Below are positions 57,726 to 62,660 of a stretch of DNA of 64,000 nt, piece by piece; the stretch's first letter is position 1; each line of letters opens with the position of its first letter. The notes under the pieces are model-generated. The model saw only the letters and a program-made list of their open reading frames with translations. It made no database searches and was not told the DNA's origin. The DNA comes from an uncultured delta proteobacterium. Its GTDB lineage: Bacteria; Myxococcota_A; Polyangia; Polyangiales; Polyangiaceae. The stretch lies in contig CAVQUB010000033.1 in NCBI GenBank assembly GCA_963716725.1, forward strand, positions 76,665-140,664, given 5' to 3'. The translations under genes and the position numbers were made by a program.

Positions 57726-57899
57726 AGCCTGATGGAAGCTCGTCTGGCGAGCGGAGGCAAGCCGGCTAGCTACGTTCCCACTCTTGATCGGAAGTCGGTG
57801 AGCCGAGCGCAGGCTTTGCCGGGCAGTGAGAGAGTCTGGGGCAAAGGCGGGGGCGAGGACGGGGGGAGGTGACGCCACACCGTCCTCACGCTCTCCCCG

Positions 57900-58175
57900 C
57901 AGCCTGCAGCGCCTTGTCGAGCTCGGCGAGCACCAGCGTGCTCGGAGTACCCGAGCCGCTCCGTGCAGTACGCGAACATCGAGGTGCAGGCCTCGCCAAG
58001 ATTGAGCCGCCGCCGCTCGACCTCGCCCAGACAGGCAATGACCTCGGCGATGGCTCGGCGCTCGTCGCGACGAACCTCCGGCAAGCGCGCGATGAGCTCG
58101 GCATCGGTGAGAGCAGCGAGGCGAGGGCGAGGGCGAGGGCGAGGGCGAGGGCGAGGGCGAGGGCGAGGCGTGCAT
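57900..58175 (-). pseudogene. Truncated N-terminal remnant of a DUF222/HNH-endonuclease-type gene
   Basis: LTDAELIARL...EVIACLGEVERRRL...ACTSMFAYCTERLGYSE resembles the N-terminus of myxobacterial DUF222-HNH proteins; out of frame with the nearest ATG (58175), and similarity stops after YSE. Confidence 0.65.
58121..58168. repeat. Hexanucleotide microsatellite (gcgagg)x8
   Basis: Eight perfect tandem copies. Confidence 0.95.
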
Positions 58176-58384
58176 GTCTTCGCATAACACGCGATTTCTC
58201 GACCTTGCCGCTGCCACGCTGGACGCGTTTCGAGCACTCGGACGCGTCGAAAGTCGTCGCGCATGCGAAACGAGGCGAGCGCTCGACCTCGTGCGTGCGA
58301 GGGCCGACTTTCGCGCACTCGACGAAGCGCGAACGCGAGTCGTCCGAAAACTCGTCAATTAACCGGCCAATCGTGCCGCGCTCC

Positions 58385-59767
58385 TCAGCGCGGAGATTTG
58401 CGAAGCAGTCTGCGGAGATCGGCTTGCAGTCGGCGGACACGTCGGACGAGCATGCGTGCGGAGTCGCGATCGAGCCCATCGTCTTGGGTGCGCTTCTGCA
58501 CGTATCTAGCGAGGTCGGCCAGCAACTTGAGGGGCTCCGGAGCGGGGGGTGAGGCGGTAGCAGCCGTGGGAGTGATCATGGGGTAGCGCTCGGCAATTCG
58601 CTCGAGTGCCGCGGCGAATTCGGCGAACACGGTGGTGCCGGTGATCTCCGCGTATCGCAGGGTCATGCGGTAGTCGGTGTGGCCGAGCAATCGCATGACC
58701 GAGGGAAGGCTCATTCCTGCGGCCAGGAGCGATGTCGCGTAGGTGTGACGGAGGCGATGCGTCGTCATCGGTTCGGCGAACTGAATGCCACGGCAGGCCT
58801 CGCGAAGTGCTTCTCTATAGGACCCGTAAAGGGTCTTGCGACCGGCGGCAGTTGCGAGCAGCAGGGTGCGCTTACGCGGGCCTGTCCGCCGCAATCTGGA
58901 GACGAGCGTGACGGTGCGCGGATCGAGCGGGACCAGCCGCTCGGTGGCGAGCTTGCCGAGCGGGACCTTGAGCAGGGTGTTGCCGCTGTGGTCGGTGCGG
59001 ATGCAGTGGTACGGTAATGCGATGAGCTCGCCGATGCGAAGTCCGGTGCGTCGCATCAGGAGCAAACCGAGCTGATACATGCACCCGGACTTCTTGAACC
59101 GGCGCTGAAGGAGGAGGTCGGTGTCAGGAGGAACCGGGCGAGGCAGGTACTTGGGGAGCTTCGGCAGGTCGCTGCCACGGATCAATGTGTCGGCGGGCAC
59201 AGAGAGCACGCGCTGCTCTTCGAGCGACTCGAGGTACGCGCGGATGTTCTGGATGGCGTGAACTCGGGTGCAGGCAGCGAGGTGGCGAGCGTGGAGCCAG
59301 GCGAGCCAGGACTCGATGTGTGAACGCTCCAGGCCGACGAGAGACACATGGTTGGCGTTGAGCCAGATGTGAAACTGTCGGAGATGGGTTTGATAGGCGC
59401 GTACGGTCTGCAGCGAGTGCGTGGGTTTGAGCAATTCGAGGAAGCGGCTGGCATGTGGTGGCAGCGGGAAATTCGAACGCGGCCAAGCGCAACGCGGGTC
59501 GAAGCCGAGGAGACCACGTGCATGAAGCCACTCGAAATACATCAGGGCGAGGCGGCGTTGGCGGGCGCGCACATGCTCGGGCACCGGCGCCTTGGATGGC
59601 TGCTGAAGGAAGCGATCGATTTCCGAGCTCTCGAGCTGCAGGATCGGCCGGCAGCTGGCCTTCAACCAAAGGTGAAATTGGCTCAGAACGCCGCGCGCTC
59701 TCGGCTCGCGCTGCAAGAATTCGAGCGCGAAAGGGGGCAGATGGGCGAGGGGGTCGCGGCGCGCCAT
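58385..59767 (-). CDS. Tyrosine recombinase with an extended N-terminus
   Basis: TGLRIGEL (R), GKLATER (K), THRLRH (HxxR), LLGH (H), MTLRY (Y). Confidence 0.93.
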   Translation of the reverse strand: MARRDPLAHLPPFALEFLQREPRARGVLSQFHLWLKASCRPILQLESSEIDRFLQQPSKAPVPEHVRARQRRLALMYFEWLHARGLLGFDPRCAWPRSNFPLPPHASRFLELLKPTHSLQTVRAYQTHLRQFHIWLNANHVSLVGLERSHIESWLAWLHARHLAACTRVHAIQNIRAYLESLEEQRVLSVPADTLIRGSDLPKLPKYLPRPVPPDTDLLLQRRFKKSGCMYQLGLLLMRRTGLRIGELIALPYHCIRTDHSGNTLLKVPLGKLATERLVPLDPRTVTLVSRLRRTGPRKRTLLLATAAGRKTLYGSYREALREACRGIQFAEPMTTHRLRHTYATSLLAAGMSLPSVMRLLGHTDYRMTLRYAEITGTTVFAEFAAALERIAERYPMITPTAATASPPAPEPLKLLADLARYVQKRTQDDGLDRDSARMLVRRVRRLQADLRRLLRKSPR

Positions 59768-59776
59768 GATGCAATC

Positions 59777-60826
59777 TCATTGCCGATAGCGGGCGGCGAT
59801 TTTCTTGAGCGCGCGCCGGAACTCGTCGGCCACGTCGGCCATGGACAACCGTACGTACTGCAGTGTTGTCTTCAGATCGGCATGGCCCATCATCTGTTGC
59901 AGAACGGGCAAGCGCACACCAGCGCGCGCCATGTCGGCCCCGAACGTGTGTCGAAACCGGTGGGGGTTGGCGATCGCGAGCACGCGCCGGCGACGACGAT
60001 GCCGGAACAAGCTCCTCAGTCCAGCCGGCGTCATGGGCTGGCCGCGGCGCTTACCCTGTAAGACGACGAACAGACTCGGCTTGCTACACTGCCTGGGCCT
60101 CTCGAGCTCGAGGTACCGCCGCAACGTGCGTGAGAGCACGAGCGGCAAGGGCAGTGCGCGGTCGCGCTGCCCTTTGCCGCAGACGCGAACACGGCCGTCG
60201 CTGAAAACGACGTCGGCAAGCTCGAGCCCGAGAACTTCAGCCGAGCGAAGGCCGCACAGGAGCATGAAATGGGTGATGGCGAAATCCCTGTAGCGGGTGA
60301 GACTGCGAAGGAACGCTCGCACCTGCTCGGGCGTGAGCGGCTCGACGAGCTTGCGCGGCTCTTGGACACGGAGCTTGAGCACGCCGCGTCGTCGGAGCCG
60401 GTGAATGCCGAGGTAGTGATCACGACCGGGCCCCTTGTAGTGCGCAGCGGGCAAGCTCACGCGAGAGCCGACGCCGAGCTCTCGATTCATCCAGAAGCGA
60501 TACAGAAGGCGGGCTGTGGTCAACCGGCGATTGATTGAGCGTGGCTCTGCGCCGGCCTTGCGTTGCGCTGCGATGAACCCCAACAAGTCGCGTGCCTCGA
60601 GCTGCCGAAGCGAGCGCCCCTCAGCACGCATCCATCGATAGAGCAGCAGCAGATCATATGCGTACGCCCGGACCGTACGCCGGGATAATCCGCGGACCCC
60701 GAGTGCCGAGAGAAACTCATGAACCTCGGCGACCACGCCATTGGCATCCACGAGCGAATGGCCAATCTCCGAGTGCGCGACCACGCGCAAGGCGGTACCG
60801 AGGTCGCATTGCAGGCTGCTGCTCAT
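59777..60826 (-). CDS. Tyrosine recombinase (XerC/D-like)
   Basis: SRRTVRAYAYDL, CGLRSAE, GKGQRDR, PHRFRH, MMGH, TTLQY. Confidence 0.93.
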   Translation of the reverse strand: MSSSLQCDLGTALRVVAHSEIGHSLVDANGVVAEVHEFLSALGVRGLSRRTVRAYAYDLLLLYRWMRAEGRSLRQLEARDLLGFIAAQRKAGAEPRSINRRLTTARLLYRFWMNRELGVGSRVSLPAAHYKGPGRDHYLGIHRLRRRGVLKLRVQEPRKLVEPLTPEQVRAFLRSLTRYRDFAITHFMLLCGLRSAEVLGLELADVVFSDGRVRVCGKGQRDRALPLPLVLSRTLRRYLELERPRQCSKPSLFVVLQGKRRGQPMTPAGLRSLFRHRRRRRVLAIANPHRFRHTFGADMARAGVRLPVLQQMMGHADLKTTLQYVRLSMADVADEFRRALKKIAARYRQ

Positions 60827-61122
60827 GGCACTGCACGTCGCTGGTGCGCTCGGATGCCGTGGTGCACGGTGGCGTGATCGCGACGGAACAGCGATGCAAT
60901 CTCCAGGAGGCTGTAATGGCGATCGGACTGATTACGAATCAGCCACCAGAGCTCCTGGCGTGCACGTGACACGCTCGAGGTCCGAGCTCGGCCGCAGAGC
61001 TCTTCCCGAACCACGCCACGACGACGGCAGACGTCCTCGAGCAAGGGCGTGAGATTGCGCACCTCGAGCGCTGCGAGGACGGCCGTGGCGCTGCTCGCGC
61101 CGTCGGGGCTGGGCGCGGTCAT
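60823..61122 (-). CDS. Stand-alone DnaA C-terminal (domain IV)-like helix-turn-helix protein
   Basis: ELCGRART..VSRARQELWWLIR...YSLLEIASLFRRDHATVHHGIR parallels the DnaA signature (R.RQ.AMY..R..T..SL..IG..F..RDH.TV.H). Confidence 0.8.
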   Translation of the reverse strand: MTAPSPDGASSATAVLAALEVRNLTPLLEDVCRRRGVVREELCGRARTSSVSRARQELWWLIRNQSDRHYSLLEIASLFRRDHATVHHGIRAHQRRAVP

Positions 61123-61493
61123 CGAGGCACTCCGAAGAGCAGCATCTGCCTCAAATCGCAGAATTCACCGACGCCCACGAGGTCGCGATGACGGCGACGA
61201 ACGCGAGCGGGCGGTGGTACCCAGTCCACGGTGTACAGCGGCGCCCCGTTGTCGATTGGGATCCCATCGTAGGCTGACAAGTCCGCTTCGACGCCCCGCT
61301 CTTCCGCAGCGAGCGCAACGCGGACCGGTTGCCCCTGCCACAGCGCCAGCGCCTCGAGCAGAAGCGGCAACGCCCGAGGGTGCGTCGGCGGGCGCAGCAA
61401 CCGGGCCTTTAGAATCGTCTCGCTCGGGCCGGCCATTGCGAGCACGCGCATCTCCTGGGGCCCAGGTGCAACGCCCATCCAAATCGAGCTCAT
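61119..61493 (-). CDS. Hypothetical mobile-element accessory protein
   Basis: MSSIWMGVAPGP...ILKARL...HPRALPLLLEALALWQG; stop overlaps the next ATG by 4 nt. Confidence 0.7.
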   Translation of the reverse strand: MSSIWMGVAPGPQEMRVLAMAGPSETILKARLLRPPTHPRALPLLLEALALWQGQPVRVALAAEERGVEADLSAYDGIPIDNGAPLYTVDWVPPPARVRRRHRDLVGVGEFCDLRQMLLFGVPR

Positions 61494-61809
61494 GGGTCGA
61501 CTCCCGCTCCGAGCTCGATGCCGCCCCAACGACGGCCTCGGCTACGAACGGGACGACCATCTCACGATGGCCAAGTTTTTCGGCTGTGCTGTGCGTTACA
61601 TTTTTCTGCTGCTCACGCCAGCGAGCCACTCGCGCCGCCGTCGTCGTGTGCCCCAGCTTGCTGCGGCGGTACCGGCGCACGGACGCTTCGCGCGACAAGC
61701 GTCGGCACTCCGGGTCGCAGAACAGCCTGCCGAAGTTGCACGCCGGGCAAACGTCGAGCACGTTGTGGCATCCATCGCGAGAGCACTTCGCCTGCTGAAG
61801 AACGACCAC
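61165..61809 (-). CDS. Cys-rich putative zinc-finger protein with a basic helix; the real 3' end may be near 61490 if a frameshift is present
   Basis: CSRDGC..LDVCPAC..GRLFCDPECRR, then RRYRRS..RVARWR; the ORF tail overlaps the next gene extensively. Confidence 0.6.
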   Translation of the reverse strand: MVVLQQAKCSRDGCHNVLDVCPACNFGRLFCDPECRRLSREASVRRYRRSKLGHTTTAARVARWREQQKNVTHSTAEKLGHREMVVPFVAEAVVGAASSSERESTHELDLDGRCTWAPGDARARNGRPERDDSKGPVAAPADAPSGVAASARGAGAVAGATGPRCARCGRAGRRSGLVSLRWDPNRQRGAAVHRGLGTTARSRSSPSSRPRGRR

Positions 61810-62335
61810 CGCTGCGAATGCAGAAAGCTGGCCGCAGCAAGGGATGGCATGCGAAGGTAGCGCCGTCGAACGCGACCACCGCGACGACCTGAGGGCTCGG
61901 AAGTGACTATCCGGGCCCTCTTACTTTCTTCCGCCGCGATCATCGCGATTCCGACACGGCACGGGCCAACTCGGGGCAGAGGGAACAGAACGAATCGCCC
62001 ATATCGGCGACCCGAGATTGGCCGGTTAGATCTCAACACAATTCGCCGGTCCAGACCGGCTAAAGAGGTAACAAATCAAGCCGGCCACACAGCTGACAAA
62101 CCGGACCGGCCACATGGGTGCCAAGCCGGACCGACGGGGCCTTCTACGAGCGGCGCAGGTTCACCGCGATTCGCCCTCCGCTGCCAGCACGGTCGCAAGC
62201 GCTACGGCCAGAACGGCTCCGGCGGCACGCCGTCAGCCTCTCCGCGCACACCCGAGCCGCGCGTTCATGCCCACGCGCGTGCACCTGCACCGCTGGTTGC
62301 GAGCGCTGGTGCGCCCGCCCTATACTGGAGGGACC

Positions 62336-62660
62336 TTGCACGACACGTCGCCCGCCGCCGAGACGCCATTCGAACTGCTCGCGGAGAGGTCGCCCGTTGA
62401 GCGCCTGGCGATTGCGCTTCGGTTGAGCACCATGGTGAGAACGCTTGCCGAGGCCGATCAGGGGCCGACGCCCCTCGCTCGCCGACCGCGCTGTGCGGAA
62501 CAGACTGGCGGACCGGCTCTACGGCCAGAAGTGGCGGAGGAGGTCTTTCCGGTCGAAGGGGCCACCCTCACCGCGCACACCCCAGCCGCGCACCCATGCC
62601 GACGCGCGTGCTCATGCCCACGGTGTGGCCGGTGATTGGCTCTTTTTCGAGACGAAGTAG
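62336..62660 (+). pseudogene. Small helical protein gene with a frameshift (antitoxin-like 'DTSP' family, by recollection)
   Basis: GGAGG then TTG; HDTSPAA...SPVERLAIALRLSTMVRTLAEA continues in another frame as RPSLADRAVRNRLADRLYG. Confidence 0.5.

Follow-up and report, generated by a model that had tools for sequence, protein, structure and literature searches.

A compact transposon of 3,674 bp, bounded by perfect 13-bp inverted repeats and containing two tyrosine recombinase genes, was recognised in a stretch of 64,000 nucleotides (hereafter the window) from an uncultured Polyangiaceae-type myxobacterium (GenBank assembly GCA_963716725.1, contig CAVQUB010000033.1, positions 76,665 to 140,664 of the forward strand). 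The element, located at window positions 58360-62033, is a discrete and real mobile unit that has been recently active, and it is very likely an autonomous transposon of the Tn554 superfamily, in which a short recombinase (RecA, TnpA-like) and a long one (RecB, TnpB-like) act on the 13-bp inverted arms. Knowledge of Tn554-type transposons comes largely from Firmicutes, where they carry drug-resistance genes and where their route of movement is not yet settled; in soil and water bacteria, a far larger family without passenger genes is built on the same recombinase pair and end motif. What is new here is a branch of this superfamily with a defined target, conserved lox-like ends and a modular helper set. 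Being only 3-4 kb long, with sharply defined ends, a constant 9-nt spacing and targets that can be recognised, such elements constitute a minimal system for mechanistic work; the replication-type helpers that recur in them, either a primase or a DnaA-like helix-turn-helix (HTH) protein, offer handles on whether such elements copy themselves, and a helper cassette swapped with IS21 elements bears on the travel of accessory functions between transposon classes.

The two copies of the inverted repeat TAACCGGCCAATC are exact, and five open reading frames (ORFs), all on the minus strand, lie between them (Table 1), in agreement with the initial annotation, which had also given correctly the 12 nt that separate the last stop codon, that of RecB, from the left repeat. 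When the window was scanned for TAACCGGCCAATC with up to two mismatches, just these two sites were recovered against 0.5 expected; since at least two sites were also reached in 10 of 100 shuffles, the argument for the pair is its position rather than its count. The element had been taken to end at the repeats on both sides, which is exact on the left, whereas the right end was found 5 nt farther out, as seen from other copies and from empty sites: the pentanucleotide GATCT beyond the right repeat is the same in every copy of the source assembly (G000) and of the congener G003. Because a second copy on contig C1 of G000 and the empty sites of congeners fix both ends, the limits of the element are established. 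The statement that no target duplication is visible had to be abandoned, as 3-4 nt are repeated at the flanks, the window copy having CAAT and CAAC (CAA in common) and the C1 copy having CAAT at either end.

Four places in G000 carry the element: C33 (the window, at the end of this contig), C1, C31 and C15. The C1 copy (C1:194468-198151) is 99.5% identical to the window copy with all five ORFs open, and it is decisive for a discrete mobile unit because the identity between the two runs exactly over window positions 58353-62036. It splits a gene of the SGL family (SMP-30/gluconolactonase; Pfam SGL, 1.4e-49 on the G001 orthologue), which four congeners (G001, G002, G003 and G005) have unbroken. 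The empty site in these congeners reads ...GACGGCAA(T/C)CTCTA..., or in longer context ...AAGGACGG(C/T)AA(T/C)CTCTA..., and encodes KKDGNLYFTDP in three of the four, the site of G002 being ...GACGGCACGCTCTA... (KKDGTLYFTDP); the occupied site on C1 reads GACGG-CAAT-[TAACCGG...GGTTAGATCT]-CAAT-CTCTAT. The C31 copy is 98.5% identical to that of the window, with three genes frameshifted and both flanks the same as the window's from 58030 to the contig end, and the C15 copy (96% identity) is frameshifted and truncated by the end of its contig. Further copies in the genome and empty sites in relatives, for which the initial annotation had advised a search, were thus both obtained. Two more copies, 80-83% identical to the window element, one intact and the other degenerate, are present in G003 together with one solo right end. 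The latter (C22:748331-748585, L029), of approximately 255 nt including the arm and with the flank CAAGAAGAATCGTGC, is what deletion has left of a copy at a further HNH-type site.

Additional junctions were obtained from contigs of public runs of four studies (X1, X5, X6 and X7). The C1-type flank was found again in X5 and X6 and the C15-type flank in X1, and the X7 junction GAAGAAAATGGGGATGCGG is the right half of the canonical unoccupied HNH-repeat site. The unit that is present or absent in the empty-site comparison is an insert of 3.68 kb, with no larger unit carrying structural or conjugation genes. The original description of a compact, self-contained tyrosine-recombinase transposon, part of neither a prophage nor an integrative and conjugative element (ICE), is accordingly upheld by the copies, by the exact empty sites and by independent insertions in other assemblies.

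The element inserts preferentially at GAAAAYNCGTCAA, upstream of HNH repeat genes, and occasionally at other sites such as that in the SGL gene (GAAGGACGGCAAT). In the window the element is located just upstream of an HNH-endonuclease-like repeat gene, and the left flank is matched up to 58358, and no farther, by at least seven paralogues in G000 and by many in congeners; approximately 200 nt of it are shared by the two copies of G003. The occupied left flank reads GAAAAC(T/C)CGTCAAT or GGAAACCCGTCAAT in the window copy and the two G003 copies, with GAAAACTCGTCAAT in the window and GAAAACCCGTCAAT and GGAAACCCGTCAAT in G003; it is GAAAATCCGTCAAT in L118 and L123, and the contig L051 ends with ...GTCAAT. 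The unoccupied form, GGAAACGCGTCAA|GAAAGAAATGG, stands 14 nt upstream of the HNH ORF in at least five copies of a 3.5-kb repeat of G000, to which the canonical members of the HNH gene family belong. This 3.5-kb unit, in whose leader the preferred target sits, occurs in at least seven G000 copies at 97-99% identity (C5:604755-608292 (L196), C2, C3, C4, C6, C21 and C33:25344-28831); it contains an HNH-like ORF of 489 aa (Pfam HNH 3.4e-4, just under the cut-off) with a variable tandem repeat in the leader, and also holds an IS5/IS1182-type transposase (DUF772, DDE_Tnp_1) split by a frameshift.

Soil and water bacteria harbour a large family of such elements that has not been catalogued. RecB is represented in it by at least 120 protein clusters with 53% identity or above, nearly all of them on contigs of 1.2-6 kb and named just 'XerD' or 'tyrosine recombinase'. 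At E <= 1e-30, RecB was found in 2 of 401 genomes sampled across the phylum, G000 included, a rarity in assembled genomes that probably comes from the poor assembly of repeats. A metagenome scan with the RecB alignment yielded at least 534 relatives, and 79 metagenome loci were kept for the family counts. In 72 of these loci RecA immediately precedes RecB, and the remaining seven have no more than 520 nt upstream of RecB. An 11-nt arm (at most one mismatch) closely follows RecB in 50 loci, and 24 possess it at both ends, the chance rate of the end motif being approximately 0.004 per locus by our own estimate. Arm-to-arm sizes in these loci are 2.9-4.1 kb, whole metagenome contigs of 3.3-4.0 kb start and stop at arms, and arms and spacing are kept down to 30-35% RecB identity. 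Several g2-element contigs of 3-4 kb (L033, L051, L056, L062, L069, L073 and L074; g2 is the RuvC/YqgF-like accessory gene discussed below) have been binned to Actinomycetota, Gemmatimonadota, Verrucomicrobiota, Planctomycetota or Pseudomonadota; these assignments may be binning errors with short repeat contigs and not indicate the real hosts. In one relative, L075, an insertion of approximately 1.3 kb (L075:8253-9578), bounded by 24-nt inverted repeats (83% complementary), interrupts the RecB gene.

The spacing at the ends is conserved as well. When 25 elements were compared, the first 4 nt beyond the RecB-side arm equalled those located 9-6 nt before the other arm in 77 of 100 positions, compared with 18-31 matches of 100 at eight other offsets in the same elements. 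Joined ends would read GATTGGCCGGTTA-GATCTCAAT-TAACCGGCCAATC, with a 9-nt spacer between the two inverted arms, a layout like that of lox/FRT-type sites, where inverted repeats likewise enclose a short spacer. Positions 2-4 of the spacer are the part in common with the target. Because the 5 nt beside the arm on the side of the Zn ORF are constant within the clade (AGATC), no carried footprint of the Tn554 or SE type is visible.

Both recombinases contain Phage_integrase plus SAM-like core-binding domains (Pfam), and no other ORF of the element carries Phage_integrase. The catalytic set R-K-HxxR-H-Y, assigned to both from the outset, was borne out: residues R244, K272, H337, R340, H363 and Y372 of RecB are invariant in 34 homologues, and RecA could be aligned to XerA (4a8e) over the GLR, GKG, HxxR, GH and Y motifs. 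NCBIfam and PHROGs gave generic Xer/integrase similarity for the recombinases, under all curated NCBIfam cut-offs. The first 100 residues of RecB are similar to its own core-binding domain (internal repeat, 7e-6), and the N-terminus seems to be a second such domain; a doubled core-binding domain is also ascribed to RitA of RIT elements by Smyshlyaev et al. 2021.

Counterparts of the pair were found in actinobacteria. RecA matches the short recombinase of a Rhodococcus module with 35% identity (1e-49, against 8e-12 for the long one), and RecB the long recombinase with 34% identity (1e-38, against 4e-13 for the short one); this module is arranged as tnpA-tnpB-DUF6262, and its recombinase genes are in the same order as those of the window element. 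Among PLSDB plasmids, 48 records match RecB at E <= 1e-8 (47 actinobacterial and one from Shinella) and 37 match RecA at E <= 1e-20, all of them actinobacterial, and the matching genes sit in modules that combine a short with a long recombinase (approximately 637-655 aa) and with a DUF6262 protein. Such actinobacterial modules are treated as Tn554-related by Van Houdt et al. 2012 (PMC3414803). Moreover, the actinobacterial loci L104-L106 are bordered upstream, ahead of the short recombinase, by TAACCGGCTAA or TGACCGGCTAA and downstream, past the TnpC-like gene, by TTAGCCGGTCA or TTAGCCGGATA; the end motif of the window element is TAACCGGCCAA, and the motif that it shares with the actinobacterial elements is TAACCGGCYAA. 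Because recombinase pair, gene order and end motif are all in common, the window element can be placed, on homology, as a divergent branch of the Tn554 superfamily and not as an unrelated family. The idea of a family distinct from Tn554, which the initial annotation had put forward, is not supported in view of the same three features, namely the reciprocal best recombinase pair, the gene order and the end motif; its observation that the accessory set is unlike that of Tn554, which has TnpC/DUF6262, and that the element, with two recombinases and not three, is unlike RIT, was correct.

The likeness extends to co-oriented recombinases, the short before the long, with reciprocal best similarity to the actinobacterial pair, to the terminal motif in common with the actinobacterial Tn554-related elements, and to a site preference with secondary sites, as in Tn554. 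There are also differences. RecB has 460 aa as opposed to approximately 630-655 aa in Tn554-related elements, and the window element carries three unrelated accessory genes upstream, not downstream, of the recombinases, has no passenger genes and possesses perfect 13-bp inverted ends. No TnpC/DUF6262 match was found by Pfam among the five ORFs, with just 12 nt between the RecB stop and the end repeat, and the TnpC-like actinobacterial protein gave no tblastn match in the 79 metagenome relatives. The Tn554 family of Staphylococcus and Enterococcus carries tnpA, tnpB and tnpC. Judged by the strict tests for Tn554 in the TnCentral preprint, co-oriented short-then-long recombinases are present, tnpC is absent, and the targets are the site upstream of the HNH repeat and the SGL gene instead of radC (att554). 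The same preprint calls the Tn554 family 'restricted to the Firmicutes', whereas the host here is a Polyangiaceae-type myxobacterium. In the literature searched, no description of this family or of its end motif was found, and among the papers listed for the motif strings there were unrelated primer-type matches only.

Other compact systems were compared by their descriptions. RIT elements are likewise compact, made only of Xer-like recombinases between inverted repeats, and the two core-binding domains of RitA recall those that RecB seems to have; they are set apart by three recombinases (ritA, ritB, ritC) and 34-bp repeats according to Idola 2023 (PMC10214605), against two recombinases and 13 bp here. 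SE elements share one ordinary and one larger recombinase and joined ends that form inverted repeats around a short spacer; judged by gene layout they differ, being arranged as intA-tfp-intB-srap with a 6-bp spacer, whereas the window element has no gene between the recombinases, a 9-nt spacer and no carried 6-bp footprint.

From these data we infer a pathway in which the circle, the assignment of proteins to sites, the positions of cleavage and the choice between cut-out and copy-out are all conditional. RecA and RecB would bind the 13-bp inverted arms at both ends, and the ends would recombine into a circle with GATTGGCCGGTTA-GATCTCAAT-TAACCGGCCAATC (13-9-13), in which 62033 is joined to 58360 through ...GGCCGGTTAGATCTCAATTAACCGGCC.... 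The circle would then recombine with a target having 3-4 nt (TCAA or CAAT) in common with the spacer, so that insertion would take place preferentially at GAAAAYNCGTCAA upstream of the HNH-endonuclease-like repeat gene and occasionally elsewhere. The first three genes would be accessory, and between the element and IS21-type insertion sequences the cassette of Zn ORF and g2 would have passed in one direction or the other. The circular intermediate is proposed mainly because the joined ends would always give inverted arms around a 9-nt spacer; circular forms have been reported for Tn554 in the TnCentral preprint.

Several points weigh against this reading. G000 is 84% complete and 3.9% contaminated, and two of its four copies (C31 and C15) are frameshifted. 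Moreover, the C31 copy may be a strain variant or a segmental duplicate and not a separate transposition, because both of its flanks are in common with the window copy. Tyrosine recombinases usually have an overlap of 6-8 nt. The identity between target and spacer is just 3-4 nt in this clade, within which the crossover would have to lie, and this is unusual for tyrosine recombinases. No joint, circle or excision product was seen in the contigs of the four public runs, although contigs cannot show rare circles, and no sigma-70-like promoter was detected in a scan of 58300-62100, leader included. Finally, the link to Tn554 runs through the actinobacterial relatives and Van Houdt et al. 2012 (PMC3414803) and not through staphylococcal Tn554 itself.

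The alternative that deserves most attention accepts the same element and differs in its route: it may, tentatively, move by replicative copy-out as proposed for SE elements, with one-strand joining of the ends, completion of the circle by replication and retention of the donor, the replication-type accessory genes serving that step. The 3-4 copies in the genome, the primase upstream of RecA in 30 of 79 relatives and the DnaA-domain-IV HTH of the window copy speak for this, and copy-out has been argued for SE elements by Idola et al. 2023 (PMC10214605), where the Tn554 route is left unresolved. Nothing among these data, however, tells the two routes apart; there is no enrichment of DnaA boxes in the element, the HTH is missing from most relatives, and the constant spacer nucleotides beside the Zn-side arm disfavour a carried footprint of the SE/Tn554 type. 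A decayed and immobile remnant, with copies that stem from segmental duplication or redundant assembly and repeats that are relics, would account for the common flanks of the C31 and window copies and for the frameshifts in C31 and C15; it is nevertheless very improbable in view of the C1 copy, which lies in an unrelated gene with intact ORFs, 99.5% identity and exact empty sites in four congeners, of the four kinds of flank in independent assemblies, and of arms and spacing kept to 30-35% RecB identity. Least probable of all is a cassette that undergoes inversion or resolution, or the terminal part of a larger integrative unit such as an ICE, a prophage, a RIT or a GInt island, for although inverted recombinase sites and Xer-like recombinases occur also in inversion switches and integrative islands, relatives show the presence or absence of exactly 3.68 kb and no inversion, contigs of 3.3-4.0 kb start and stop at arms, just two recombinase genes are present, and the flanks are ordinary genes (HNH repeat gene, histidine-kinase-like ORF and SGL gene), and an inversion switch, a prophage/ICE fragment and RIT membership were rejected.

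The Tn554-type transposon preferred here is accompanied by helper genes that vary within the family. In 30 of the 79 metagenome loci the gene directly upstream of RecA encodes a primase of the DnaG type, with CHC2 zinc ribbon, DNAG_N and Toprim domains; g2 occupies this place in seven, something undetected in 17, and 18 have no room. The primase-carrying elements form a sister clade of approximately 3.96 kb (L146-L187; e.g. L164:1225-5192 and 29 others), which shares the RecA-RecB pair, the TAACCGGCCAA arms, the 9-nt spacing and the compact size with the window element; a 113-aa ORF and the primase replace Zn ORF, g2 and HTH, and RecB is just 32-37% identical. The DnaA-IV-like HTH named in the initial annotation was verified by Pfam (Table 1). 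No tblastn match to it was obtained in 68 g2-bearing and 79 metagenome loci, and among the copies examined it was found only in those of G000 and G003; by this distribution it would be a recent addition, and because it is missing from most relatives it is not essential to the family. DnaA boxes (TTATCCACA, at most two mismatches) number 41 in the window against 35 expected, with just two inside the element, and give no signal.

The gene g2, reported initially as an unknown gene at 61119-61529, exists, but its homologues place the start at the ATG at 61493, giving 124 aa. Its family comprises 216 clusters, all 'hypothetical', from Myxococcales and Polyangiaceae assemblies, and Pfam, NCBIfam and PHROGs contain no family that matches it. 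The AlphaFold model (pLDDT 75.8) has an RNase H-like topology. A Foldseek search of the PDB gave nothing at E <= 1e-3, and VIA-align returned Z scores of 9.6 for the RuvC domain of Cas12i, 9.3 for Poxvirus resolvase, 8.7-8.8 for the YqgF domain of Tex/Spt6, 8.2 for Ydc2 and 7.9 for RuvC. A RuvC/YqgF-type fold is predicted with moderate confidence on these Z values of 7.9-9.6. Since no acidic residue on strand 1 is conserved among the homologues, g2 may bind DNA rather than cut it.

The overlapping Zn/g2 cassette is also found upstream of istA-istB in IS21-family elements of Polyangia, which are otherwise of a different kind: they possess the DDE transposase IstA and the ATPase IstB, TG...CA ends and a 6-bp target duplication, and the window element has neither IstA nor IstB. 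When the 68 g2-bearing loci were taken from species genomes, g2 was followed by an IS21-type istA in 53 (istB being also detected in 36 of these), by the recombinase pair in three and by other genes in nine, and three ended too soon. A tree of g2 was built from 57 rows (12 recombinase-type and 45 IS21-type), leaving out hits of less than 96 residues or with stops and the 'other' and 'short' loci; it requires at least five switches of element type on well-supported branches. The g2 of the window is 66% identical to that of the IS21-type L030, 62% to that of G000's own IS21-type copy and 53% to that of L051, although the RecA of L051 is 80% identical to the window RecA. The window g2 is thus nearer to an IS21-borne g2 than to that of a close recombinase relative, and, with the tree, this shows that the cassette has been repeatedly exchanged between IS21-type and Tn554-type elements. 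The IS21-type element of G000 (C1:286798-289900, L197) consists of a Zn ORF of 212 aa, g2 of 122 aa, istA of 514 aa and an istB-like ORF. The possibility that Zn/g2 selects the target was rejected, as three IS21-type copies in a single genome, each with TG...CA ends and a 6-bp duplication, occupy sites unrelated to one another.

The cassette exchange, the primase of the sister clade and the DnaA-like HTH together suggest helpers that act on something common to both classes. It might be speculated, with considerable doubt, that Zn/g2 is a portable helper cassette that moved at least five times between the chemically unrelated IS21-type DDE and Tn554-type classes, and that the helpers act on abutted or joined ends and their replication and not on the chemistry of strand transfer. 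If this were true, Tn554-type transposons would be replicative and the helper genes would represent a transposase-independent layer of transposition control.

The Zn ORF was listed at first as a separate zinc-finger gene; the cysteine-rich ORF is indeed present, but it overlaps g2 by 329 nt in another frame. Pfam gives one sub-threshold match for it (MSSP, E 0.028). No proteins of 30-116 aa resembling its N-terminus were found, and the protein atlas contains only unnamed clusters of 145-207 aa for this part. The GC content at third codon positions (GC3) indicates normal coding in the Zn frame only over 61530-61809. Nevertheless, 51 of 52 loci keep the Zn frame open over 250 nt or more of g2, whereas just 6 of 52 do so for the other frame. 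An open stretch of at least 290 nt was observed in 49 of 52, versus 11.6 of 52 from synonymous-codon shuffles of g2, a contrast that is overstated as the loci are related. The Zn frame over g2 looks maintained, either as an overlapping gene or for the product of a programmed frameshift. The operon as a whole is tightly packed, since the HTH gene overlaps each neighbour by 4 nt and the RecA and RecB genes are 9 nt apart. No RNA data are listed among the public runs that carry the element.

Table 1. Features of the element and its immediate flanks (window coordinates)
Feature	Position	Strand	Basis
Target region: 5' part and upstream of a diverged HNH-endonuclease-like repeat gene	57770-58359	-	paralogue matches
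Left flanking repeat CAAT, in which the crossover would have to fall	58356-58359	.	copies and empty sites
Left terminal inverted repeat TAACCGGCCAATC on the RecB side; arm presumably bound by recombinase	58360-58372	+	exact match
RecB, long tyrosine recombinase, 460 aa	58385-59767	-	Pfam, homologues
RecA, short tyrosine recombinase, 349 aa	59777-60826	-	Pfam, homologues
HTH, 99 aa, DnaA domain IV-like	60823-61122	-	Pfam Bac_DnaA_C 8.4e-13
g2, 124 aa, predicted RuvC/YqgF-type (RNase H-like) fold	61119-61493	-	homologues, predicted structure
Zn ORF, 214 aa: six-Cys N-terminal domain (~93 aa) and ~105 codons overlapping g2 in another frame	61165-61809	-	
Non-coding 5' leader between first gene and right repeat; promoter presumed	61810-62015	-	
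Right terminal inverted repeat, Zn-side end	62016-62028	-	exact match
GATCT, element-borne, outside right repeat; completes the 9-nt spacer with the flanking repeat	62029-62033	.	
Right flanking repeat CAAC	62034-62037	.	CAA common to left copy

The surroundings of the element contain further repeats. The right flank was considered as a possible second element and rejected: the right flanks of the window and C15 copies are approximately 75% alike over 110 nt and once more near the end of what we take, from its sequence, to be a thioredoxin-like gene. Because X1 shows a C15-type copy with an HNH-type left flank, the window and C15 loci are regarded as paralogous target regions. A hexamer tandem repeat, (GCGAGG)n-like, lies at 58116-58168 within the HNH-like gene, with near-identical runs in C4, C23, G002 and G003, and the homology between C31 and C33 stops near it, at 58030. 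Beside the 3' end of the presumed thioredoxin-like gene, a 55-nt repeat is present in the right-flank intergenic region, at 62234-62288 and 62563-62617 of the window, and at the paralogous loci on C31 and C15, with 82-84% identity.

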